From: Candidatus Saccharimonadia bacterium
Lineage (GTDB): Bacteria > Patescibacteriota > Saccharimonadia > Saccharimonadales > JALRHH01
Direction: 5' to 3'
Assembly (NCBI GenBank): GCA_023253175.1
Contig: JALRHH010000001.1
Coordinates: 428,020 to 492,019, forward strand
DNA: 64,000 nucleotides
Within the stretch, counting starts at the first letter, position 1, and each line of letters starts with the position of its first letter. The notes beneath the pieces were generated by a model. It had not been told where the DNA came from. It ran no database searches and worked only from the letters and a program-made list of their open reading frames with translations. This document shows, in pieces, positions 3,127-64,000 of this stretch. The position numbers and the translations under genes are program-made.

Positions 3127-4164
3127 TTATTTTGGTTGCTCATCGATAGCACCAAGTGCTTCTTTAAGCTCGTCTGGCTCTTCGAGCTTCAGCGGCTTCT
3201 TGCTCTTGATCTCGTACTTAAGACCAGTCATTGGTGATTCGTAGTAATCGTCGTTTAGGAGGTTTACGAACTTGGTGAGGTCTTTGGTATCCATGATGAT
3301 AATTGAACCGTTTGTGTCGGTCATCATTTCGATTCCCAGCTCTTCTGCGTGATTCAGCAGTTCATCTTGTTTCACGTTAGTTGGGTCAATCTTTTGCAGC
3401 TTATTAACAAGTGCTTTCTTTTCCATAACCATTGAATTGAGACTGGCGCCTTCTTCAAAGCTGAGTTTGAAGTTATCCTGAATTTCCGCGACTTTCTTTT
3501 CTGCGATCGCTGCTTTTTTGGCGTTGTAGTTAAACAGCTGTTCAAGCTTGGTCTGGTTAAAGACGAAAATATCCTGGTCGACAATAAGTAACTGGTTGTC
3601 GGTTGGAATACGTAGCGCCCCGTCTGCGTCGAACGGCACGAACTTACCGCCGCGGACTAACCACCCAGCGTTACCCTTCATCATGTTTGAACTTGGCAAT
3701 ACCTTTGCAACGTAAAATGGCTGTTCCATTTCAGGATGAGAGATACGTGCAATCACGCCCTTAATACGCTTGAGGTCGTGTTCTTCCTCAACAAACTGTT
3801 CGATCTCGGCCTCTTGTGTACGGAGCCAGCTCAGCACTTCCCTGGCCTTCACGACGTTAATGAGCTTTGTTTTCTGAAGAACCATTTGCTCTTGCTCTGC
3901 ATCCTCAAAATTACGGACTACAAGTCCCTGGTCTGCACCCTCAAGCACGTATTCAAGGATTGGATCAATTAAGATTGAGTGCAGGTGCATCTCAAGGTCC
4001 TTGGACCTCGAAGTCTTATACACCACTGAGTTTTTGTTAATCAAAAATAATTCTATTTTGAGGTCTTCCTTGAGCTGCACAAGGTTGTTCGCCCATAAGA
4101 AAATGTCTGTCTCCTGGTAATCATCCTGAAGCTCTTGTTCGTTCACTGATTTGTTTTCTTCCAT
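3127..4164 (-). CDS. KwaB-like (DUF4868-like) protein
   Basis: 345 aa, soluble. Central segment LLIVDQDIFVFNQTKLEQLFNY and C-terminal LLNDDYYESPMTGLKYEIKSKK resemble my recollection of the DUF4868/KwaB family. Not verified by any search. Confidence 0.5.
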   Translation of the reverse strand: MEENKSVNEQELQDDYQETDIFLWANNLVQLKEDLKIELFLINKNSVVYKTSRSKDLEMHLHSILIDPILEYVLEGADQGLVVRNFEDAEQEQMVLQKTKLINVVKAREVLSWLRTQEAEIEQFVEEEHDLKRIKGVIARISHPEMEQPFYVAKVLPSSNMMKGNAGWLVRGGKFVPFDADGALRIPTDNQLLIVDQDIFVFNQTKLEQLFNYNAKKAAIAEKKVAEIQDNFKLSFEEGASLNSMVMEKKALVNKLQKIDPTNVKQDELLNHAEELGIEMMTDTNGSIIIMDTKDLTKFVNLLNDDYYESPMTGLKYEIKSKKPLKLEEPDELKEALGAIDEQPK

Positions 4165-4204: not shown

Positions 4205-4227
4205 AATTATCAAGCGGCTTGATAATT
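4205..4227. promoter_or_regulatory. perfect 23-bp palindrome AATTATCAAGC-g-GCTTGATAATT (operator or RNA hairpin)
   Basis: 11-bp arms read directly from the sequence. The right arm overlaps the stop codon of the 209-aa gene. The palindrome sits just upstream of the -35 region of the putative KwaB-like promoter. Confidence 0.5.
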
Positions 4228-4856
4228 TAGTACCTGCGGGACTTTAGTAAAGTCTTTGTGACGAGGCCGCCAAGCGCAAGTCCGACGCCCACTATGGCGG
4301 CATTTTTAAGATTTGCCTTGACATCCTCTACATCAACATCAATTTCCAACCAGAAGCGCTTTATGCCCTCACGAGGCATTTTTTCAGATATATCAATAAA
4401 ATTATCTATGTCTGCACATAAATTACTTGAGTACTTACTATAAATTAATTCTCCGAGTTCCTTTACACTTTCAGCTTTTTCAAAAAGCGACTCCACAATT
4501 GTGATAACTCGTGTCTCATCAAACATGTCGTAGTATTCAGAGCCAACAAGACGATTAAATAGCTCACCTCGCTTATTGTCATCGGCGACCCAAAGACGAG
4601 CAATAGTGGTTCTTGCTTCCTCGGCAGATTCTGCAAGAGACCCAAACACCTCTGTTGATAGATCAGTAAAATGAGTCGCTTGATTCGTAATCTGCTCTGC
4701 GAGCACATCTGAGTATTGTTCGTAGTCCGGCTTGTCTTTAAATATGCCACTCAAAAGACTATGTAGCATGAACTGTCCTTCGTCAAAACTCGCCATTGAA
4801 TCAAGTAGGCCCGAGTCTAGCCCCTCGAACGGCTCTTCATAGCCAAATTTACCCAT
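4227..4856 (-). CDS. hypothetical tail-anchored membrane protein
   Basis: 209 aa. Acidic soluble body with a single C-terminal TM (AAIVGVGLALGGLVTKTLL) followed by KSRRY. Overlaps the upstream gene by 8 nt. Confidence 0.55.
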   Translation of the reverse strand: MGKFGYEEPFEGLDSGLLDSMASFDEGQFMLHSLLSGIFKDKPDYEQYSDVLAEQITNQATHFTDLSTEVFGSLAESAEEARTTIARLWVADDNKRGELFNRLVGSEYYDMFDETRVITIVESLFEKAESVKELGELIYSKYSSNLCADIDNFIDISEKMPREGIKRFWLEIDVDVEDVKANLKNAAIVGVGLALGGLVTKTLLKSRRY

Positions 4857-5643
4857 TAACAGACCTCTCTTCCTCTTCTTCGTGTGGAAGAATAACTTTC
4901 AAAATATTCTTTGCGGCATTCATGACACCCACCTCTGTAACAATGCTATTACTCTCAATATTCTGGTACAACATGTCAACTGCCATGGTTAGCTGAAGCT
5001 CCTTGAGCACGGAAGATCCGAGGTCAGCAAACATCTTTAGATCATCTTCATCAAATACCTCATCAAGATCGGCAGATTCAGGCCCTTCTAGCGTCTCTGC
5101 TACCAACGAAGCCTCGGACTGCGCCTGCATTGGTAAACTAGACTGAGCTCGTGCACCAGGTAGCTCAACAGGAGTCTCATCAACATATGCATATACCTGC
5201 AGTAAATCTTCTATTGTTCCATCAGACGTAACGGTTACCGTATAATCACACCCGATTGCGAGCCTCGTTTCCGAATTATCAAGCAGCCTAAGCCACTCTT
5301 CTGTCGGAACTAATTCTCCGTCAACCAGCTCAGTCTGACCATACTGTAGTGCCTCCCAAACATCGTCCGGAAAAGCAATTCTTGAAAGCTCGTTGAACCT
5401 TGCCTCGCCAATAATTTTGTATGTTGTTAAAAGAATCTCATCATCCTCATCCGAGACAACACGCTCCGCATTGAAAGAATAGCTATTTGACGTCAGGTTA
5501 TAGAAATCGGCATTAGAGCGAGCAAATCTCGTAAATGATTCATCGTGTTCTTTATATCCTTGATCGAGCTGCCCCGCAATCTTTTCGAGCTCCATGGCAA
5601 ACCTAAGTACATCCGATTCCGACTCTGCCCCAAATTCGCTCAT
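4849..5643 (-). CDS. hypothetical acidic protein
   Basis: 264 aa, strongly D/E-rich, no recognised motif. Translationally coupled on both sides (4-nt and 8-nt overlaps). Confidence 0.55.
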   Translation of the reverse strand: MSEFGAESESDVLRFAMELEKIAGQLDQGYKEHDESFTRFARSNADFYNLTSNSYSFNAERVVSDEDDEILLTTYKIIGEARFNELSRIAFPDDVWEALQYGQTELVDGELVPTEEWLRLLDNSETRLAIGCDYTVTVTSDGTIEDLLQVYAYVDETPVELPGARAQSSLPMQAQSEASLVAETLEGPESADLDEVFDEDDLKMFADLGSSVLKELQLTMAVDMLYQNIESNSIVTEVGVMNAAKNILKVILPHEEEEERSVNG

Positions 5644-6281
5644 GCTGCGGCCTCATTATCAAACTGATTCACTGTGTCCAGCATACGTTCCTTTATCTCT
5701 TCAATTGCTTCTGGATAGAGTGGTTGACGCCATTTTGAACCGTATGGCACCACTTGGTCTATGAGCACTTGAGTATCTGGATGTAGGTAAGTATCAACGA
5801 CTGGGTTATAGTTAACGATCGTTAGTTTTGTGCCAGTCGCCTGGCCATCCGCGCCCCACTCCAACTGATAAAGTTCGCGTGTATTTGAATATCGAAGTTT
5901 ATCGTTAAGAATATATTCCAGAAACGATACGCTTAGCTTCCAAGATCTGAAATCAACCATACCTGTCCTTATGCTAACGAATCGATCAACATCGTTTGAA
6001 CCAATTGGACTGCCGGAGTTTTGGAGTAACGTAAACTGGTGAAGCCTATTTCTAACTCGTGGCCTTCTGGCGCTTTCTCTAAGTACACCCATCGCCACTG
6101 CCTGCAAAGATAGCACATCCTTTAATGGCAATCCTGGCAAATCGTCTACAGATTCAATTTCAACCACACTAGATTTTCTGCTTACAGTGTGACTTAGATC
6201 AGATAATGCGTGGAGCCTCAGATCATCTGTATCTAGATGACCTTGTTTTTGCTCCACCCTTTTTAGAGCTTCGGTTTCCAT
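5640..6281 (-). CDS. hypothetical protein (first gene of the accessory operon)
   Basis: 213-aa ORF. On the minus strand a TATAAT box (6288-6293) lies 6 nt upstream of the ATG. Confidence 0.55.
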   Translation of the reverse strand: METEALKRVEQKQGHLDTDDLRLHALSDLSHTVSRKSSVVEIESVDDLPGLPLKDVLSLQAVAMGVLRESARRPRVRNRLHQFTLLQNSGSPIGSNDVDRFVSIRTGMVDFRSWKLSVSFLEYILNDKLRYSNTRELYQLEWGADGQATGTKLTIVNYNPVVDTYLHPDTQVLIDQVVPYGSKWRQPLYPEAIEEIKERMLDTVNQFDNEAAA

Positions 6282-11355: not shown

Positions 11356-12051
11356 CTAACGGTCGATGGATTGGCGAAGTAAGTTTTTGCTCAAGGGTTG
11401 GAGTGCAGCGATGTATTCATCTGCGTCCTGTACTTGCTTAAGAAGCACGGGGCTTTGGAGCGAATGAATAAGACGGAGTAGCTTAAGGTGATTGACGTTG
11501 TACGGGCCGCCGTCCTGGACCCGAAAACCACTGGACTCAAAATCAAATAAATACGATTCTTCGGCCGATAATTTATTACCTTCTGTATCCGTACTGAGGT
11601 TCGGTGCATGCCCTGTTATTTGCAGCAGTTGCAACGCAAACCAGGTCTCAATGTACGGCAACGGCACATCAGCGTCATTAAGTCCCGCAAGTGCTGCAGA
11701 TAATAGATCAAAGTATTCCTCGCCGGCCTCGTCCTCGATATAACGGTTCAGTTGTTTTATTAAATCATAGCCAAACATCGTGCGCTGAATGTCTTTGACG
11801 ATGTTGCCGTAGTTAACCGCCATACGGCTGCTAATGAGCGTCTTCAGATCACTTTTGCTAGGCATGATTGTCAGTTCGTTAATCGTGAACAATTCAATGC
11901 CACCTGCCATTTTTGATTTGGGCCGCCTGACGCCTTTTGCAATGATACTGAGCCGTCCATTATCCGGTGTCAGCACGTGTAAAATCCGATCAGCTTCCTG
12001 GTAGTCCCGGCGTGACAGCACGATGCCGCGTGTAACAATCTGCGCTTTCAT
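11356..12051 (-). CDS. recO: DNA repair protein RecO
   Basis: 231 aa. The N-terminal OB-fold pattern VTRGIVLSRRDYQEADRILHVLTPDNGRLSIIAKGVRR is typical of RecO. Confidence 0.85.
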   Translation of the reverse strand: MKAQIVTRGIVLSRRDYQEADRILHVLTPDNGRLSIIAKGVRRPKSKMAGGIELFTINELTIMPSKSDLKTLISSRMAVNYGNIVKDIQRTMFGYDLIKQLNRYIEDEAGEEYFDLLSAALAGLNDADVPLPYIETWFALQLLQITGHAPNLSTDTEGNKLSAEESYLFDFESSGFRVQDGGPYNVNHLKLLRLIHSLQSPVLLKQVQDADEYIAALQPLSKNLLRQSIDR

Positions 12052-12422
12052 TACTCAGTCGCCTCTACGACTGACCGCACGAGTTGCTGCAAATTAGTGG
12101 CTGGTTTGTACAGAATGTCGACGATGCCGAGCTGCTCCAGTAAATCTTTCGTAATACCAAGCGAATGCGGCGCAACCATTGTCAGCAGCACAATTGGAAT
12201 CTCTTTCCATTCTGCATACGATCTAAATTCATAGATAAATTCAATGCCATTATGCCCCACCAGTTGCAATTCAAGCAGCACAACATCAGGAGTAAATTCA
12301 TCAGCAGTATGTACCGCCAATTGGGCTGACTGTGCATGACGCATCACATGACCAGCATTCGTAAACGCCTGGGTGTAGATCGCCGCAAGTTTTGCGTCTG
12401 GTTCAATCAGCAAGATATTCAT
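12051..12422 (-). CDS. stand-alone receiver-domain protein with Glu at the phospho-acceptor position
   Basis: 123 aa, CheY-like. DVVLLELQL occupies the position where receivers have LLD. The conserved Thr (LLTMV) and Lys-Pro (YKP) are retained. Confidence 0.75.
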   Translation of the reverse strand: MNILLIEPDAKLAAIYTQAFTNAGHVMRHAQSAQLAVHTADEFTPDVVLLELQLVGHNGIEFIYEFRSYAEWKEIPIVLLTMVAPHSLGITKDLLEQLGIVDILYKPATNLQQLVRSVVEATE

Positions 12423-20087: not shown

Positions 20088-20480
20088 CTATACGAGACCA
20101 AGGTGACGCTTGACGCGGTCTACTACATCGGCAATTACAACCTGCGACTTCACGAGATAATCATCAACACCGAGGCTCTTAGCACGTTCCTGGTCGCTTT
20201 CCTGACTGAGTGCAGTTAGCATAATTACCTTCACATTAACTGTTTCAGGAGTATTGCGGAGAATATCCAGCACATCAAACCCACTTACCTTTGGCATCAT
20301 TACATCCAGCAAAATCAAATCAGGACGATATTCCAGCGTTGCAGCCAATGCATCTTCGCCGTTTGGCACACGACGGATGTCAAAGCCTTCTGCCTGTAAC
20401 CTGGTTTGATATACACTTGCGAGCGCGTCGTCGTCCTCAACGAGCAAGATTTTTTTAGAATGTGTGTTTGTGCTATCCAT
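20088..20480 (-). CDS. stand-alone CheY-like response regulator (canonical)
   Basis: KKILLVEDDD, phospho-acceptor LILLDVMMP, MLTA and LVKS are all present. There is no output domain. I prefer the ATG at 20480. Confidence 0.85.
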   Translation of the reverse strand: MDSTNTHSKKILLVEDDDALASVYQTRLQAEGFDIRRVPNGEDALAATLEYRPDLILLDVMMPKVSGFDVLDILRNTPETVNVKVIMLTALSQESDQERAKSLGVDDYLVKSQVVIADVVDRVKRHLGLV

Positions 20481-20535
20481 ACTGCTTATGCTAGCACTAA
20501 CAGCCCGTATTTGCAAGTAGACACCCTATATGGTC

Positions 20536-32834: not shown

Positions 32835-32923
32835 GCGTGAAAACCTTCTTTAGACAAAGTTTTCACGCTGTAACAGATGAAGCTATGCTGTGTGAAATGT
32901 TCTGTAGCCAAAACTTTTCACAG
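32835..32923. repeat. composite double-hairpin intergenic element, copy A
   Basis: GCGTGAAAAC-N14-GTTTTCACGC, then tg-TAACAGATG, then TGTGAAA-N18-TTTCACA. It ends 7 nt from the hpf stop. An A5 run at 32830-32834 gives a U-run on the minus strand. Confidence 0.85.
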
Positions 32924-39630: not shown

Positions 39631-40635
39631 TTATTTTTGCAGACCAACAATTAGGATGACTGCAAGCAGTAGCTTTGAGACTACGAGAATACGACTCAGA
39701 TTGCGGTTCACGAATGCAAAATCATATTGCCTTTTAAAGCCGTTCCACTGAATACGAGTCGTAGCCAGAAGCGAGATTGAAACCACTGCAGCGGCTGCGT
39801 ATGCATACCACGGAGATCGAACCGCAACTGACGCGCCATCAGTACCAAAGATGTATGTGGAGATCATCGTAATAACAAGGAATACGACAGGTAATACCGC
39901 AAGCACAGCACTCACCGCATAAATGCCACGAGTCGGCTTACCAGTTGCTGCGTTCTCACGCTCAAATACCCATGCAAGATATGCCGAGATTAAAATAGCG
40001 ATCGCGCTGAGTTTGAGTGCAATGAGGTCCTGCACGCCATTAAGGAGTGCCGCAATTGAAAATGCCACAGATGTGGTAACCGCATAATCAATCCATCGAA
40101 GACTGCTAACTTTATTGGTAACAGCAGCCTGATCTTTGGCCAAGTACTTGGTTCCACGTAGGATTGCAACAACGGCAGCCAATACGAGAAATCCAACTGC
40201 TAGCCAGCGGAATTCTACTTCGTACAGTACGTGTGCCGCAGGTGCGAGAACCGTACCGGCAGTACTTGCAAGCTCATCCTTCGTAAGATGTCCGAGTAGT
40301 ACCTGCACTGAAGTCGTGTTCATAAAGTATGCTGCAAGTCCTGCGAGAACCGCGAACACAATACCAAGCTGAACCTGAAGACGGTTTAGTAGCGGCGTTA
40401 CACCAGAAACTGAAGCCTTAGCAACTGGCTTTGGAGCCTCTGCTGGCTTGATAGTTGACTTAGTGGTTGCTACCGCTTTTTTTACAGCTGGTTTCTTAGC
40501 AGCCCTTGAGGTGGTAGCCTTGGTAGTTCTTGCCGCCTTTACTGCTGGCTTGGTTGCCTTTGCAGTAGATTTTGTAGAAGGCTTTTTATTTGTAGTTTTG
40601 GTCTTTGCCTGAGTTTTAGAAGTTGTCTTTGCCAT
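39631..40635 (-). CDS. heliorhodopsin-like 7-TM protein with Lys/Ala/Thr-rich N-terminal extension
   Basis: Seven predicted TM segments. LRWIDYAVTTSV aligns with FRWVEYSLSSSV, GVQDLIAL with GIADIVAL, VAVRSPWY with VAVPGFVY, and ILVVSKLLLAV with LSLVAKSALAW (the retinal Lys) of heliorhodopsin 48C12. The 48C12 sequence is recalled from memory. The first ~83 aa are a KAT(P)-rich basic tail. Confidence 0.6.
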   Translation of the reverse strand: MAKTTSKTQAKTKTTNKKPSTKSTAKATKPAVKAARTTKATTSRAAKKPAVKKAVATTKSTIKPAEAPKPVAKASVSGVTPLLNRLQVQLGIVFAVLAGLAAYFMNTTSVQVLLGHLTKDELASTAGTVLAPAAHVLYEVEFRWLAVGFLVLAAVVAILRGTKYLAKDQAAVTNKVSSLRWIDYAVTTSVAFSIAALLNGVQDLIALKLSAIAILISAYLAWVFERENAATGKPTRGIYAVSAVLAVLPVVFLVITMISTYIFGTDGASVAVRSPWYAYAAAAVVSISLLATTRIQWNGFKRQYDFAFVNRNLSRILVVSKLLLAVILIVGLQK

Positions 40636-47740: not shown

Positions 47741-47749
47741 ATACGAATA

Positions 47750-47758
47750 ATTATACCA
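47750..47758 (-). promoter_or_regulatory. extended -10 promoter TGGTATAAT, 9 nt from the rseP ATG
   Basis: The reverse complement of 47750-47758 is TGGTATAAT. There is no SD before the ATG at 47740. Confidence 0.5.
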
Positions 47759-47804
47759 AACAGGTCCTGAAAACTATAAGCTTTATACACTACCTGAATG
47801 TATT

Positions 47805-47891
47805 CTGTGAAAACTTTTTGTACCCAATATTTTCACAAAATAACAGATACAGAATGTCCCGTGAAAACTTTATTATCACAAAATTTTCATG
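47805..47891. repeat. composite double-hairpin intergenic element, copy B
   Basis: CTGTGAAAAC-N15-ATTTTCACA, then aaa-TAACAGATA-cagaatgtcc, then CGTGAAAAC-N15-TTTTCATG. It ends at the base before the uppS stop codon. Confidence 0.85.
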
Positions 47892-49185: not shown

Positions 49186-49215
49186 AAAAAAACAGCGGTA
49201 AATTCTACCGCTGTT
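49186..49215 (-). terminator. rho-independent terminator between the 83-aa ORF and frr
   Basis: AACAGCGGTA-aattc-TACCGCTGTT, with an A7 run on the plus strand that gives U7 on the minus strand. Confidence 0.7.
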
Positions 49216-49235
49216 TTCGTTTTATTGAACGTCCT

Positions 49236-53530: not shown

Positions 53531-53959
53531 ATGCATAAGATTTATTTTGCCTGCTCTATCCGTGGTGGCCGAGATGATGCAGAAATATACCAAGAACTGG
53601 TTGACCACATTAAAACTAAGGCTGTTGTTTTGACTGAAATTTTTGCCGACAATAAGCTCACGCCCCAAGGCAGCCCTGACCCTAGCGAGTTTATTCATGA
53701 ACGAGACATGTCATGGGTAACCGAAGCTGATGCGGTTATTGCCGAGGTTAGCAATCCAAGCCTCGGCGTAGGCTACGAAATTGCCAAGGCAGAAGAGATG
53801 GGCAAACCGGTACTTGCCCTGTATCGGCCACAAGAAGGCCGTAAACTTTCTGCTATGATCGAAGGATCACCACAGACGGATGTCGTTACCTATACTTCTG
53901 CCAAGGAAGCCTCATTTGCCATCAATGGATTCATTGAATATCTTGCCGTGAAAAGTTAG
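53531..53959 (+). CDS. DNPH1/Rcl-like 2'-deoxynucleoside 5'-phosphate N-hydrolase (nucleoside 2-deoxyribosyltransferase superfamily)
   Basis: KIYFACSIRGGRDD…VLTE…HERDMSWVTEADAVIAEVSNPSLGVGYEIA…LSAMI closely parallels the DNPH1 pattern (YFCGSIRGGRED…PSLGVGYE…LSAMI). Confidence 0.8.
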   Translation: MHKIYFACSIRGGRDDAEIYQELVDHIKTKAVVLTEIFADNKLTPQGSPDPSEFIHERDMSWVTEADAVIAEVSNPSLGVGYEIAKAEEMGKPVLALYRPQEGRKLSAMIEGSPQTDVVTYTSAKEASFAINGFIEYLAVKS

Positions 53960-54038
53960 ACCCTAGGCCTTTTCACGAAATAACAGATATACGAAAACCG
54001 CGTGAAAACTTCTGTAGCAAAAGTTTTCACGCGGTTTT
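53947..54038. repeat. composite double-hairpin intergenic element, copy C (second hairpin is an 18-bp perfect stem and bidirectional terminator)
   Basis: CGTGAAAAG-N13-CTTTTCACG, then aaa-TAACAGATA-tacg, then AAAACCGCGTGAAAACTT-ctgtagcaa-AAGTTTTCACGCGGTTTT. The first arm overlaps the stop codon of the DNPH1-like gene. The element ends 12 nt from the htrA stop. Confidence 0.9.
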
Positions 54039-58655: not shown

Positions 58656-59513
58656 CTAGAGGTTGTTAAGCTTTTCGAGTAAGCTACCGAGCTCATCGTC
58701 ACTCTTGAAATGAATCTCAAGACGACCACCCTTTGCAGTACGACGAACACTCACAGGCGTCTTGAGCGTTTTACTGAGACGCTTAGTTTCTGGTGTTTCG
58801 GTAGCCATGCGTTCCTTTACGGCTTCCTCTTTTTTAACGCCTTGCTTATAGGTTGTCGCAAACTGCTCCGCCTGGCGCACCGACCAGCTCTTCTCAATAA
58901 TATTCTGTAGTAGTTCTTCTTGCGCTTCTGGATATGCTTTAAGTGACAAAATCGCCCGGGCGTGTCCTTCACTAATTTTGTTCTCAGCAAGCGCATCGCG
59001 CGCGGATTCAGGAAGCTGCAACAGTCGAACGAGATTGCTGACTGTCGTCTCTGCCTTTGAAAGACGTTCCGCAATTTGCCTATATGTGAGGTTAAACTGC
59101 TGGTGTAGGCGTTCAATCGATATCGCTTGTTCGAGCGGAGATAAATCAACGCGCTGCACGTTTTCAATAAGTGCAATTTCAAGCTCCTCGAGCTGTGCGG
59201 GTTCACGAATAATAACCGGAAGTTCGGTCAGGCCAGCAATTTGCGCTGCGCGCCAACGACGCTCACCGGCTACAAGGCGATAATTGCCATCATCAAGCGG
59301 CACCACGATCAGCGGCTGGAGTACGCCAAACTGCTTCAGTGACCCAGCAAGCTCATTAAGTGCGGCTTGCTCAAAATAGCGTCTTGGCTGGTCTGGATTC
59401 GGCGAAATACGCGTAATGAGTAATTTTTGTATTCGGTCTTTACTGTCGATTAACAGAGATGGATCGAAGTCTGTTGGTATTAATGCATCAAATCCTTTGC
59501 CTAGTCCCGCCAT
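58656..59513 (-). CDS. parB: chromosome partitioning protein ParB (Spo0J)
   Basis: ParB box LVAGERRWRAA, an HTH region, and a position directly downstream of parA. Confidence 0.9.
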   Translation of the reverse strand: MAGLGKGFDALIPTDFDPSLLIDSKDRIQKLLITRISPNPDQPRRYFEQAALNELAGSLKQFGVLQPLIVVPLDDGNYRLVAGERRWRAAQIAGLTELPVIIREPAQLEELEIALIENVQRVDLSPLEQAISIERLHQQFNLTYRQIAERLSKAETTVSNLVRLLQLPESARDALAENKISEGHARAILSLKAYPEAQEELLQNIIEKSWSVRQAEQFATTYKQGVKKEEAVKERMATETPETKRLSKTLKTPVSVRRTAKGGRLEIHFKSDDELGSLLEKLNNL

Positions 59514-60271
59514 TACTTCATCCTTTCTAATATCTCTTTACTTAGCGCCTTATACGCCCTTGCACCCTTAGACCACTTGTCATGCTCTGCGATGGACTTA
59601 CCATGGCTTGGGGCCTCAGCAAGGCGCACGTTACGGGGTACGACTGTCTTAAATAGCTTGTCGCTAAAATGCTTTCCGAGCTCATCATATACCTGCTCCG
59701 ATAGACTCGTGCGACTATCGTACATAGTCACCACCACACCCAAAAGGTCTAATCCTGGGTTCAGCCCTGCCCGCACGCGCTGAACGACACTCAATAATTG
59801 ACTCAATCCCTCCAGCGCGTAATATTCTGCCTGCACGGGAATCAATAAATGGTTCGCTGCAGCTAATGCGTTCACAGTCAGCAGCCCAAGTGACGGTGGA
59901 CAGTCAATCAGCACAATATCATATGAAACATTCGCTAAAATGTTCTTGAGGATTAATTCACGCTGCATCTGACTAACCAACTCTACTTCGGCTGAAGCAA
60001 GACTTGGATTCGCTGGCAGCACAAAAAGCTTATCAATATTCGTTTCCTGGATGGCATCTGATGCCTCCGCACGCCCAAACAGCACGTCGTACATTGTTGC
60101 GCTCAAAGCGTGCTTATCAATACCAAGTCCGCTCGTGGCGTTACCCTGCGGATCGAAGTCCACAATAAGCACCGACTTCCCCGCCTTCGCAAAATAAGCC
60201 CCTAGGTTGATGGTAGATGTCGTCTTACCAACGCCACCCTTTTGGTTTAATACCGCAATAACTTGCCGCAT
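59513..60271 (-). CDS. parA: chromosome partitioning ATPase ParA (Soj)
   Basis: Deviant Walker A NQKGGVGKTT. 252 aa. Confidence 0.95.
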   Translation of the reverse strand: MRQVIAVLNQKGGVGKTTSTINLGAYFAKAGKSVLIVDFDPQGNATSGLGIDKHALSATMYDVLFGRAEASDAIQETNIDKLFVLPANPSLASAEVELVSQMQRELILKNILANVSYDIVLIDCPPSLGLLTVNALAAANHLLIPVQAEYYALEGLSQLLSVVQRVRAGLNPGLDLLGVVVTMYDSRTSLSEQVYDELGKHFSDKLFKTVVPRNVRLAEAPSHGKSIAEHDKWSKGARAYKALSKEILERMK

Positions 60272-60320
60272 ATCTGTATGTTTCCCTCGTTATACCATAA
60301 GCGTAGCATATATAAGAAAG

Positions 60321-60340
60321 CTTTTCACGAGTTTTCACGG
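60321..60340. repeat. tandem half-site copy of the repeat-family arm (CTTTTCACG-a-GTTTTCACG-g) directly upstream of the parA promoter
   Basis: Two direct copies of the TTTTCACG arm lie 6 nt after the giant gene stop. They abut the -35 region of a putative TGGTATAAC promoter for parA. Confidence 0.7.
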
Positions 60341-60345
60341 ACTTT

Positions 60346-63300
60346 TTAACGTATTTGTGTACGGATACTACTGTAATTTACGGTAGCTGTATTATTACCT
60401 CCACTACAGTAAACACGCACGAGCACTTCACCCTTAGCCTCGTTCTTGATCTGAAGCCAGTCACCCTTGACCGCACCGGTACGATCTATCGTTGTACTAC
60501 CGCTGTCAGTAAGATCATGCCATATCGGGTTGTCTTCGGTCAGACTGTACTGGAGCTTACAACTTGCACCTTGGCTACCCGCCGCAGTTACGTTAATAAG
60601 GAGACGTGCCTGGTTGGCATTACTGAGGTCAATCCACGTTCGGTTTTCACCAGGGAGCTCATAGTCACCAGATGGCTGCGTCCATGGGCTTCCTCCAGTG
60701 GCAATCGTGTACTCGCTAAACGCAGTCTGTAGACAATCTTGCCACTTATCATTCTGGTAACAGCGGAACTTCTTCATTGCACTGTTGTAGTACTGCGCAC
60801 CGTTAACACCTGCCGGGTCACCATCACTGCTCTTGGTATCAAGCACAAACAGAACTGTCTTGCCGTTATTGCCAGCACCGATCTTCACCTTACCGGTCAA
60901 GGTATCAATATTAAGTGCGTTATCCCCGTTAGCGCCCTTAACCGTAAATGCGTTGCTACTATCGAGCTTCAGCTCGAGTGCACCATTATTAAATACCGTG
61001 AAGACGCCGTTACCATCTTTCTTTAATGTGAGTAAGTTAGTACTACTATCGGCTTCCAGTGTTACTGCTTGTGCACCAATTGTTGTGGCACCAGTTATGC
61101 TACCCACGGCGGTGATGCCACTATTATTGTTATTCAATCCACCTACAATTGATGCACCACCTGAACTCAAGGTTAGTCCAGTAATATTCTGAAGTGCACC
61201 CGATGCAGTAAGCCGCAGCGTGCCACCCGTGCTGATTGTGTTCAGGTTAGCGTTACCCTGACTATTTAGATACTTAGATAATTCACTAACACCCCTGAGC
61301 GTGTAGATACTGAGACCTTCGTAGTTCACATGCTTGTATCCGTATTCATCAGAGTAAACGAGTCCCGGCAGCACAGTTTCCAGTTGCTGCGCAAGTACAC
61401 CAGTCTGCCGCTTGGTATCACATGATGTATTAGTTGAGCTAAAGTAGTTATTAGTACAATCAAAATCAAAGTTAACAGTCTGGATATCCTTAAGGCTATC
61501 AAGTACAGAACCCTCAAGGCCAACAATGTTAGTCTTAAGCCTCTGGTCAGAGAGACCTACTCCCGTACAAGCACTAACACTCGTGATAATACCACCCCTT
61601 ACAACAGCAGTGTTCAGATACTGACCACCCGAACAAGCAATATCGATACCGGTGTAAGTAGTTGTTGAACGAACAATTCGGTAACTACTTGCGTTGTTCG
61701 TAATAGTCACATTACCGCCCGCATTAAGCACGCCCGATGCTGTGACCGCACCGTTAAGTGAAACATTACCCGTACCGGTGCTAAACGTACCCGTACCACT
61801 CATTGCAAAGTTACCACTCGTCTGTGCGTAGCCTGTTATGCCAGAGAGGCTGCCGGCATTGATGATCAGGCCGTTAATGGTATTGGTGGCGGTGGCGCCG
61901 GTAATTGCACCAGATAATGCAAGTGTCGTTACGCCGCTAATCGCACCCGCGCTTGATACATCAAATGCAGTTGAATTAATTGTCAGCGCATTGCTACCTC
62001 CACCGATGGTTATTGCACCGGTACCCGTAACCGAGAAGGCACCACTCGTTTGGCTGAAGCCAGTAATACCACTAAGACTTCCGGCGTTAATAATCAGGCC
62101 GTTGATGGTATTGGTGGCCGTTGCCGCTGTTATAGCACCCGAGGCAGAGATAGTCGTCACGCCGCTCAAGGCGCCGGCGTTGATACTGAGACCGTTAATG
62201 GTGTTTGATGTTGCGGCCGTGATTGAGCCGGAGGCAGAAATTGAGGTAACTCCAGAAAGTGCACCGGCGTTAATGATCAAACCGTTGATTGTATTTCCAC
62301 TTGTAGCACCTGTGATTGCACCGGATAGTGCAATCGTCGTCACGCCGCTAATCGCACCCGCACTCGTCAGGTCAAAGTTAGTTGAATCAATCGTCAGCGC
62401 ATTGCTACCACCGCCAAGCGTGATATTGCCCGTACCGGTTACAGAGAAGGCACCGCTCGTCTGTGCGTAACCCGTGATGCCAGACAGACTACCACTGTTG
62501 ATGATCAGGCCATTAATCGTGTTTGTAGTCGTTGCTGCAGTTATGGCGCCCGACGCAGATATCGTTGTAGCCCCGCTGATAGCACCCGCGTTGATATTTA
62601 ATCCGTTTATTGTGCCGGTTGTAGCTGCCGTAATTGAGCCAGAGGCGGAAATACTACTGATACCGCTGAGTGCACCACTGTTGATAATAAGTCCGTTGAT
62701 GGTATTTCCAGTTGTAGCCGCACTTACTGCACCCGTAACGCCCAATGATGTACCGGCAATAGAACCAGCACCGGTGATATTACCGCCGCCTAGCGCAAGA
62801 TTACCGCTCGTTAACGTCAGTCCAGCAACGCCACCGATAGATCCCGCGTTTGTGATGCCGCCGCTATTGAGGTTAATGCCGCCAGAACTGAACGTGACAC
62901 CCGTTACACCAGATAGTGCACCCGCGTTGATGCTCAGGCCATTGATGGTGTTTGATGTTGCGGCAGTAATTGAACCCGTGGCGGAAATAGTTGTTACGCC
63001 AGCCAATGCGCCGGTGCCGGTAATACCGCCACCATTATTCGAGATGCCGCCGCTTGATATGATCAGGCCACCACCAGCAGTAATGGTCTTTGTAGCAGCC
63101 GTTTGCAGGTTACCTGCTATATCGACAGTAGTGCCGCTTGCTCCAAGCGAAATATTTGTAGCCGCACCACCGATATTGAGCACTGATACGTTCTCGTTTG
63201 CCACATTGAACGTTCCAAGTGTTGAGGTAATGCCATTTTCGTTGTAATACGTTGTACCGTTACCCGTTACCACACCGGCTATGAAGTAGCCTCGGCCAAA

Positions 63301-64000
63301 TCGGTTTGTCAGAGTAGAAGTTGTATTGCCACCGCCAATTTCAGGAATATAGTATTCCGTAACTGCAGCCCCGGCAGACCAGCTAAGGTTCGGTGTGATG
63401 GACAGTGCAGATGCCGTCTTGGATGTAATCTTCGCATAGGTGCCGTTAACGAGTACATAGTTACCAACGTCAAAGTTAGCAGTGTTGCCACTGCCAACAT
63501 TTATCGTACCCGGACTTAGACCACTGGCACTCGTTGCAGTTGTGGAACCGTCAAGCTGCGTAAAGCCACTCGTTACTCCGCCATTTGCGTCGACATTAAA
63601 CTTGCCGCTCGCAGCCTGCAATGTGGTCACACCAGATAACGCGCCAGCGTTTGTGATGCCACCGCTATTGAGATTAATGCCACCGCTTGTGAAGGTCAGT
63701 CCAGTAAGCCCACTGACATTTCCTGCGTTAATGTTCAAACCGTTGATCGTGTTTGATGTTGCGGCTGTGATGCCACCGCTCATGTTCAGTGTCGTCACAC
63801 CAGATAGCGCACCACTGTTTATGATCAAGCCGTTAATAGTATTTGTGCTCGTTGCCCCCGTAATTGCTCCAGTAACCGTAAGCGTACCTGTAGATACAGA
63901 AGTAAAGCTCGGCGTGCTACTAAGGTTGACTGACAACGTTCCTCCAAGCGCTACACTACTACTACCACTGAGATTCGTGCCAAGGCTGACATTGAAGCTA
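60346..64000 (-). CDS. giant repeat-rich surface/fibre protein with internal peptidase S74 (intramolecular chaperone) domain; N-terminus outside the window
   Basis: The frame stays open to position 64000, giving more than 1217 aa. There are tens of ~29-aa G/S/T/N/I repeats (…ITAATSNTINGLxINAGALSGVTTISASG…). The S74 signature GLSDQRLKTNI…GVLAQQLETVLPGLV…VNYEGL lies at about 61264-61563 and is followed by 305 further residues. Confidence 0.8.
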   Translation of the reverse strand, partial: SFNVSLGTNLSGSSSVALGGTLSVNLSSTPSFTSVSTGTLTVTGAITGATSTNTINGLIINSGALSGVTTLNMSGGITAATSNTINGLNINAGNVSGLTGLTFTSGGINLNSGGITNAGALSGVTTLQAASGKFNVDANGGVTSGFTQLDGSTTATSASGLSPGTINVGSGNTANFDVGNYVLVNGTYAKITSKTASALSITPNLSWSAGAAVTEYYIPEIGGGNTTSTLTNRFGRGYFIAGVVTGNGTTYYNENGITSTLGTFNVANENVSVLNIGGAATNISLGASGTTVDIAGNLQTAATKTITAGGGLIISSGGISNNGGGITGTGALAGVTTISATGSITAATSNTINGLSINAGALSGVTGVTFSSGGINLNSGGITNAGSIGGVAGLTLTSGNLALGGGNITGAGSIAGTSLGVTGAVSAATTGNTINGLIINSGALSGISSISASGSITAATTGTINGLNINAGAISGATTISASGAITAATTTNTINGLIINSGSLSGITGYAQTSGAFSVTGTGNITLGGGSNALTIDSTNFDLTSAGAISGVTTIALSGAITGATSGNTINGLIINAGALSGVTSISASGSITAATSNTINGLSINAGALSGVTTISASGAITAATATNTINGLIINAGSLSGITGFSQTSGAFSVTGTGAITIGGGSNALTINSTAFDVSSAGAISGVTTLALSGAITGATATNTINGLIINAGSLSGITGYAQTSGNFAMSGTGTFSTGTGNVSLNGAVTASGVLNAGGNVTITNNASSYRIVRSTTTYTGIDIACSGGQYLNTAVVRGGIITSVSACTGVGLSDQRLKTNIVGLEGSVLDSLKDIQTVNFDFDCTNNYFSSTNTSCDTKRQTGVLAQQLETVLPGLVYSDEYGYKHVNYEGLSIYTLRGVSELSKYLNSQGNANLNTISTGGTLRLTASGALQNITGLTLSSGGASIVGGLNNNNSGITAVGSITGATTIGAQAVTLEADSSTNLLTLKKDGNGVFTVFNNGALELKLDSSNAFTVKGANGDNALNIDTLTGKVKIGAGNNGKTVLFVLDTKSSDGDPAGVNGAQYYNSAMKKFRCYQNDKWQDCLQTAFSEYTIATGGSPWTQPSGDYELPGENRTWIDLSNANQARLLINVTAAGSQGASCKLQYSLTEDNPIWHDLTDSGSTTIDRTGAVKGDWLQIKNEAKGEVLVRVYCSGGNNTATVNYSSIRTQIR
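61630..62770. repeat. about 2.7 tandem copies of a 411-bp (137-aa) super-repeat inside the giant gene
   Basis: The 20-mer ACGCCGCTAATCGCACCCGC occurs at 61931-61950 and again at 62342-62361, giving a period of 411 nt. Each unit contains three ~29-aa sub-repeats plus a TSGAFSVTGTG…GGGSNALTI linker. Confidence 0.8.

Follow-up and report, generated by a model that had tools for sequence, protein, structure and literature searches.

A short array of head-to-tail 10-bp units lies at the parA promoter in the window, the whole 64,000-nt stretch of DNA analysed in this study, and the same array was found upstream of parA in 9 of 11 Saccharibacteria genomes. Its conservation, the change of its copy number by whole units, its helical phasing and its position at the promoter point to a selected, iteron-like operator, and we consider it quite likely that the array is bound by a protein and functions as an operator of parAB. 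Comparison of the sequences further led us to suggest, tentatively, that ParB itself binds the array through a re-specified box and that the array has an operator and centromere role. The features of this locus are as follows, in positions of the window.

60321..60339, minus strand: two head-to-tail 10-bp units, CGTGAAAAC-T-CGTGAAAAG, a probable iteron-like operator array, conserved in relatives.
60289..60307, minus strand: the parA promoter block GCTACGCTTATGG with the extended -10 TGGTATAAC, invariant columns in alignment A1.
59513..60271, minus strand: parA, 252 aa, a Soj-type ATPase without an N-terminal DNA-binding domain (Pfam AAA_31, CbiA, ParA).
58656..59513, minus strand: parB, 285 aa (Pfam ParB_N, HTH_ParB, ParB_C), with the CTP-binding motif GERRWRAA intact.

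The plus strand at 60321-60340, read directly from the window, is CTTTTCACGaGTTTTCACGg. On the gene strand, the intergenic region between the upstream giant surface protein gene and parA is 74 nt long and reads TAA-aaagtc-CGTGAAAAC-T-CGTGAAAAG-ctttcttatatat-GCTACGCTTATGGTATAAC-...-ATG(parA). The array starts 6 nt past the TAA (60346-60348) of the upstream gene, and the parA ATG (60271) follows it at a distance of about 50 nt. The unit can be written as CGTGAAAA(C/G)N, 10 bp long and repeated head-to-tail, and A4 tracts consequently recur every 10 bp. An earlier note on this DNA had placed tandem arms directly upstream of the parA promoter, and we confirmed them on the minus strand. The promoter motif TGGTATAAC that it had named also exists, at 60289-60297 and not at 60286-60294, a 3-nt offset. 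The promoters here seemingly rely on an extended -10, with TGGTATAAT before rseP (47741-47805) and TGGTATAAC before parA, and the -35 hexamers are poor; this bears on how any protein bound at the -35 would act.

Gene order on the minus strand is the giant S74-domain surface protein gene, parA and parB, then lepB (plus strand), lytR, an unknown gene and htrA. The window corresponds to the reverse strand of a metagenomic contig (ENA ERZ27267699 k141_834652), of which locus L001 is identical with it over 15,345 nt, and in total 69.5 kb was read from the source genome. The surface protein gene runs from 60346 to 63936 and onward to about 65.6 kb in L001, where its product has 1767 aa and an endosialidase-chaperone (S74) domain; the gene has internal DNA repeats spaced 183, 228 and 411 nt. 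Upstream of it, a 2058-aa Kelch-repeat protein is encoded, and both are conserved beside parA in relatives. parA and parB share base 59513 in the window, and a 159-nt spacer separates them in L041 (9842-10000). Elsewhere in the window, the ORF at 3127-4164 (minus strand) encodes a KwaB-like domain of the Kiwa anti-phage defence, neighbouring ORFs at 4227-6281 have no Pfam match, and a heliorhodopsin-family protein is encoded at 39631-40635 (minus strand), in a reduced genome. Nearly all genes of the window lie on the minus strand, and GC skew is negative throughout. The window therefore falls inside a single replichore, with no origin to be seen in it; dnaA was not located in the 69.5 kb read. 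A replication origin at parA was considered and rejected, given an intergenic region of no more than 74 nt and a GC skew that keeps its sign.

For the comparison among relatives, the parAB loci of ten other Saccharibacteria genomes were found via HtrA and ParB homologues. The array is present upstream of parA in the window and in L019, L020, L021, L022, L024, L027, L028 and L041, and the relatives that bear it reach down to 69% ParB identity. Two units are found in most of these genomes, three in L024 and four in L022, and the period is 10 bp, with 11 bp seen once. The position had been described as typical of an operator, and such conservation at the parA promoter, with 2-4 copies at a period of 10-11 bp, bears this out. 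In alignment A1, the boxes and the block T.TG.TAC.CTTA.G before the extended -10 are invariant and the other intergenic DNA diverges; the CGTG portion of the box is conserved as strongly as the A-tract. In six genomes, the promoter-proximal unit stands 2-3 nt from the block and occupies the -35 position, with 16-17 nt from there to the -10 hexamer; in the window, L019 and L021, unit and block are set apart by an insert of 12-13 nt. When the pattern CGTGAAAASNCGTGAAAA was searched, the parA array was the sole such tandem in every related locus carrying one.

Two of the 11 genomes, L025 and L026, have no array. The ParB of L025 carries the same glutamate at position 173 as the ParB of the window, and its recognition helix differs at L179I only; no array is present and no boxes were found within 10 kb either side of parAB. 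The parA upstream region of this genome is rearranged, and the neighbouring genes are different. An intergenic stretch of 259 nt in L025 (8974-9232) holds CTTTTTAGGAyTAGCCGsAkAATG twice, about 90 nt apart. L026 has Val at ParB position 173 and no CGTGAAAA units upstream of parA. At about 205-216 of this locus, about 30 nt ahead of the start codon (parA at 248), we observed a perfect 12-bp palindrome, GTTAAGCTTAAC, perhaps an operator or centromere particular to that lineage in the equivalent position.

The binder could also be another sequence-specific protein, such as an OmpR/PhoB-type response regulator, a monomeric winged-helix protein or DnaA, which would regulate parAB and have a few further genomic sites; the likeness to parS would then be coincidental. 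Activators of the PhoB/OmpR type and DnaA-box arrays classically show direct repeats with a period of 10-11 bp at the -35, and the units described here are direct repeats of this period on or beside the -35. The genome of L025, with its E173-type ParB and no array, also indicates that ParB and the array are not strictly coupled. In the case of DnaA, the canonical box is TTATCCACA, and the earlier note had judged the fit of the arms to the relaxed consensus TTWTNCACA to be only weak. The match is better than that, because the reverse complement of the box, CTTTTCACA/G, or (C/G)TTTTCAC(G/A), agrees at 7 of 9 positions and, for the minority of boxes ending in A, at 8 of 9; DnaA stays a rival. However, most boxes end in G where DnaA boxes require A, and canonical DnaA boxes were not enriched in the window. 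Among the approximately 60 window ORFs scanned, none was seen to encode a transcription factor that has a DNA-binding output domain, although such a protein could be encoded elsewhere. Two stand-alone response-regulator receiver domains with no output domain were observed, at 12051-12422 and 20088-20516, both on the minus strand. Moreover, close relatives differ between 2 and 4 copies, a kind of variation met more often in iterons and centromeres than in regulator sites, and a different binder leaves unexplained both the loss of the parS-reading arginine in the ParB of this clade and the location of ParB sites. Taking both sides into account, we regard a binder of this kind as possible but rather unlikely.

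The 9-mer that makes up the unit of the parA tandem recurs in three double-hairpin elements, where it builds the arms (at 32.8, 47.8 and 54.0 kb), and is therefore used in two architectures, the direct tandem and inverted pairs. Its core GTGAAAA is invariant across all 20 aligned arms, and the loops between the arms are unrelated. The use of two architectures, together with an invariant core and unrelated loops, argues for sequence-specific recognition. In the 64-kb window, GTTTTCACG occurred 7 times against 0.66 expected, and none of 100 shuffles reached 7; six of these matches fall in four intergenic sites and the remaining one is inside pyrG. The hairpin pattern GTGAAAA-N10-24-TTTTCAC was observed 4 times in the window, with 0 expected, and 11 of the 21 core 7-mers are located outside long ORFs, which leave 6% of the window. 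No Rfam family matched anywhere in the window at gathering thresholds, a tRNA/tmRNA search found nothing, and literature searches on the 9-mers returned nothing relevant. The composite pattern TTTTCACNNNNTAACAGATN{10,15}GTGAAA gave only chance matches to unrelated coding DNA in the genome and metagenome contig collections. The exact spacer version is thus lineage-restricted.

A chance likeness of short AT-rich words, with no biological meaning, was also considered. The motif is short, and the tandem pattern gave 12 unrelated matches in viral contigs, which implies that such tandems arise independently; these matches included ssDNA-virus iterons, phage intergenic regions by primase-helicase or terminase, and a giant-virus 10-bp satellite, and they are uninformative on the binder. 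In one of them, L031 (IMG/VR UViG_3300020041_000423, 2.7 kb), an ssDNA virus encoding Rep and capsid, iterons GCTTTTCACG stand in both orientations at 1380-1500 and include the perfect palindrome CTTTTCACGTGAAAAG; here an unrelated replication protein uses the same word, probably by coincidence. The shuffle controls, the intergenic concentration and the presence of the array at the same promoter in nine genomes speak against chance, which the conservation data effectively refute and which we give almost no weight. Two other classes were considered and rejected. A DNA uptake sequence does not fit because the density of boxes is too low and they are confined to intergenic DNA, and a CRP/Rex-type operator does not fit because the GTGAA/TTCAC halves are about 20 bp apart, not 4-6.

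The three double-hairpin elements are located as follows.

32836..32922, minus strand: element A, in the gap from the hpf stop to the secA start, with CTTTTTATAT after its second hairpin.
47806..47891, minus strand: element B, between the uppS stop and the promoter of rseP (M50 protease).
53947..54031, minus strand: element C, in the gap where a nucleoside deoxyribosyltransferase gene (plus strand) and htrA (minus strand) converge at their 3' ends, with four boxes and the spacer ATCTGTTATTT.

These elements are 86-nt composites in one shared orientation. In each, a first hairpin, CGTGAAAAC-loop-GTTTTCACG, is followed by about 11 nt, then by ATCTGTTA(TTT) and then by another hairpin, CGTGAAAAG-loop-CTTTTCACG; the distance from hairpin start to hairpin start is exactly 54 nt in all three, and the spacer contains TAACAGAT. 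The earlier description of the repeat arms and hairpins was accurate. Degenerate arms also occur, namely TGTGAAATG as arm three of A and ATTTTCATG as the final arm of B. We compared five composites, namely A, B, C and one copy each in L021 and L022 (the relatives' loci comprise about 150 kb). The spacer TCTGTTA is invariant in all five, and the TTT extension is present in four. The boxes lie at offsets of 0, 22-23, 54-55 and 76-78 nt, and their centres, at about 0, 22, 54 and 76 bp, are near multiples of the helical repeat.

It may alternatively be proposed that these elements are primarily a family of RNA hairpins, resembling REP elements or terminators at 3' ends, which reached a handful of intergenic slots by spreading and have no dedicated binder, and that the parA tandem is a decayed or rearranged remnant of them or a phased A-tract bend that boosts the promoter. 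Several properties of the composites agree with this proposal. All five begin 0-17 nt past a stop codon, and in all five the sense strand folds better than the antisense strand by 4-13 kcal/mol (for example, -35.0 vs -24.9, -28.1 vs -14.8 and -43.4 vs -33.6 kcal/mol). The stem edges, box positions 1 and 9, change in pairs, with 94% of cells paired and 4 double-change pairs, which represent few independent events. The second hairpin of A is followed by T5, and one hairpin of C is flanked by A- and T-tracts in the manner of a bidirectional terminator. In addition, a given slot may hold a composite in one relative and lack it in another. The slot of C has a copy in L021 (after htrA) and none in L019, L020, L022 and L024; the slot of B has a copy in L022 and none in L024 (gap 61 nt) and in the P0019 contig (gap 20 nt). 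In some of the slots without a composite, the intergenic gap is only 3-61 nt, and the L019 slot holds an ordinary GC-rich hairpin. The A4 tracts at each 10 bp of the parA array would suit a bend.

On the other hand, the parA tandem forms no hairpin (fold z-score +0.7 sense, -1.1 antisense), yet it is the most conserved member of the family, being found in nine genomes. CGTG is as conserved as the A-tract, and the 7-nt core of the stems shows no variation, where drift would be expected of a purely structural stem. A U-tract is missing from most of the 10 hairpins. In the window, a clear T-run follows only 2 of 6 hairpins, one of A and one of C, so the composites do not look like generic intrinsic terminators. 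A scan for consensus terminators and promoters left the composite hairpins unflagged, though ordinary GC-rich terminators do exist in this genome (e.g., 49189-49217). The window ORFs include no RAYT or IS200-like gene, and the lack of an Rfam match also counts against a known RNA family. We therefore find it improbable that hairpins without a dedicated binder account for the whole family. The composites look like transcribed 3'-end hairpins, the stems of which are made from a word under sequence-specific constraint.

parS is regarded as among the most conserved bacterial cis-elements, and it serves to predict origins and centromeres. The box is identical to a parS half-site at 7 of 9 positions (CGTGAAAAC vs CGTGAAACA), as had been counted before. 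Base by base, the box reads G/C-T-T-T-T-C-A-C and, past the centre, G, and the half-site reads T-G-T-T-T-C-A-C and G; they agree at all six inner positions and at the central G, with the differences confined to the outer two positions (bases 0 and 1). On the other strand, the CGTGAAA of the box is identical to the inner part of the half-site. We searched for the canonical 16-bp palindrome TGTTNCACGTGAAACA with up to 3 mismatches, and with 4 in the window plus 5.5 kb. No match was obtained in the window at up to 3 mismatches, in agreement with the earlier note, which had seen no canonical parS there by eye. With 4 mismatches, the window and the 5.5 kb beyond it gave two isolated matches and no parS-like palindrome. 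Near parAB in seven loci (about 150 kb of related sequence), there was one isolated 3-mismatch match and nothing closer, and matches with up to 2 mismatches were absent from six related loci. A version with abutting arms, GTTTTCACGTGAAAAC, was absent from the seven loci scanned. No 14- or 16-bp near-palindrome is shared across eight parAB loci, and hence no alternative palindromic parS was found near parAB.

The best PDB relatives of the ParB of the window are bona fide chromosomal ParBs and Noc, and it was aligned with ParB of M. xanthus and T. thermophilus and with Noc of B. subtilis. Jalal et al. (2020, PMC7383237) reported that the residues of Caulobacter ParB contacting parS are Q162, G170, K171, S172, R173, N178, G201 and R204. 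According to the same paper, variants specific for parS invariably have R at position 173, and it is this arginine that reads half-site base 1, the G of tGTTTCAC (PMC7383237). Numbering was fixed by an ungapped alignment with B. subtilis Noc, which reproduced the Noc residues Q173, K179, K184 and R201 of that paper. In Caulobacter numbering, the ParB of the window reads Y162, S170, K171, A172, E173, N178, L179, Q184, G201 and R204. The canonical set of parS-reading residues is thus altered, with Glu in place of R173 and Tyr in place of Q162, and K171, N178, G201 and R204 are kept; the inner-base contacts are retained and the outer-reading R173 is replaced. This result, obtained by the comparison of recognition residues that the earlier note had proposed, favours the direction of a divergent site.

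Besides the PDB alignments, the residues were compared in a six-genome alignment, in the 120 closest homologues and in representatives of 50%-identity clusters. The 120 closest homologues, which extend down to 65% identity, all have Y162, and 119 of them have E173. The nearest 34 cluster representatives are hypervariable at position 173, where V, T, E, Y, S, G, D, P, F and further residues occur and R is seen in only two, and position 162 is mostly Tyr. At cluster ranks 36-150, R173 is present in 90 of 101 parseable sequences and Q or H at position 162 in 91 of 101. It suggests that the DNA specificity of ParB has diversified lineage by lineage in the nearest subfamily. As far as the searchable literature shows, a clade-wide loss of the parS-reading arginine is unreported, and searches on ParB, parS and Patescibacteria found nothing relevant.

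We suggest that a sequence-specific DNA-binding protein would occupy successive units on one face of the helix and control parAB transcription, from units that abut the extended -10 promoter of parAB and, in most relatives, overlap the -35 position. The likeliest occupant would be the lineage's own ParB, which has lost the arginine used for reading canonical parS in its outer part and which may read a re-specified box, with TTTCAC and the central CG kept and the outer two bases changed. The box differs from the half-site at base 1, the base that R173 reads, and this fits a ParB with E173. The array would then serve at once as an operator for autoregulation and as a centromere-like site for nucleation, much as in the partition loci of plasmids, and the four-box elements at 32.8, 47.8 and 54.0 kb could be extra ParB docking clusters within 3'-end hairpins. 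Binding of single parS arms by ParB has been reported for P. aeruginosa, V. cholerae ParB2 and Burkholderia (PMC5961200). In view of this precedent, the altered residues, the match between box and half-site and the lack of a canonical parS or an alternative palindrome, ParB is the best single candidate for the binder, plausible but unproven. That a protein binds, that this protein is ParB and that transcription or segregation is regulated are all three what we infer.

Some observations stand against ParB. L025 has E173 and a near-identical recognition helix with no array or boxes. The units are head-to-tail and the arms of the composites are 22 bp apart, unlike a ParB dimer site, in which half-sites of two-fold symmetry stand side by side and the CTP clamp closes on them. 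A glutamate at the base-reading position may reflect a lost contact and not a new specificity, and direct repeats near a promoter are typical also of response-regulator or DnaA sites. As for docking at the composites, close relatives lack them in the same slots, and they bear signs of selection at the RNA level. Of the divergent ParB site put forward in the earlier note, the operator at the parA promoter has thus gained support; the composites fit it less well, as they are absent from the relatives' slots and are RNA-like, and binding by ParB is a suggestion that we hold with some reserve.

Compared with canonical ParABS systems, the locus shares the parA-parB operon, a ParB with ParB_N carrying GERRWRAA, HTH_ParB and ParB_C, the CGTGAAA/TTTCACG of the inner half-site, and sites at and near parAB. 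It differs in having no 16-bp palindrome TGTTNCACGTGAAACA, in its boxes, which are head-to-tail at 10 bp or inverted 22 bp apart, in the outer two bases of the half-site, and in E173/Y162 of ParB instead of R173/Q162. In the plasmid par loci of types Ib and II (R1 parC/ParR, pSM19035 omega, TP228 parH/ParG), arrays of repeats at the promoter are both centromere and operator. The shared properties are short, helically phased repeats at the par promoter, variable copy number and an implied autoregulation; in our genomes, 2-4 tandem units of 10-11 bp were found, with the proximal unit at the -35 in six of them. The plasmid binders are small ribbon-helix-helix proteins, whereas the candidate here is a chromosomal 285-aa HTH ParB encoded after parA.

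The centromere of plasmid P1 has separated boxes around an IHF site, and a helix-turn-helix domain binds its A-boxes (PMC2910045). P1 parS and the binding of half-parS sites thus offer a precedent for a ParB HTH reading single, non-palindromic boxes (PMC2910045, PMC5961200), and the composites resemble P1 parS in having four boxes around a conserved central spacer. In contrast to P1, where the C-terminal domain of ParB binds the B-box, one kind of box was found here, and neither an equivalent of the B-box nor a DNA-binding C-terminal domain is evident, ParB_C being ordinary; the spacer TATCTGTTATTT, judged by reading, matches the IHF consensus WATCAANNNNTTR poorly. In P. aeruginosa, unlike here, half-sites coexist with full parS and lie mostly inside genes. 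With REP/BIME elements and the inverted DUS/USS pairs that are used as terminators, the composites share intergenic paired palindromes after stop codons, transcribed hairpins with a conserved sequence and a patchy presence among relatives. They differ in their low copy density (3 in the 64 kb of the window, 2 in the relatives' approximately 150 kb), in that no RAYT was seen among the window ORFs, and in that the same word also forms a tandem without hairpins, conserved at one promoter. With intrinsic terminators, they share the position after a stop codon; a clear T-run follows one hairpin of A and one of C and not the other hairpins.

It is possible, if rather doubtful, that this clade combines a chromosomal ParABS system with a plasmid-like centromere, in which an E173/Y162 ParB reads CGTGAAAAS both as iterons at the promoter and as four-box clusters in 3' hairpins. 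If this is true, a chromosomal ParB would work with iteron-type sites, which were known before only for ribbon-helix-helix proteins of plasmids. The near-universality of parS would be broken, and predictions based on parS would fail in a large uncultivated lineage. The variable position 173 would mean that ParB and its centromere have co-diversified by lineage, and it would provide a natural variant series for the co-evolution of ParB and centromere specificity.
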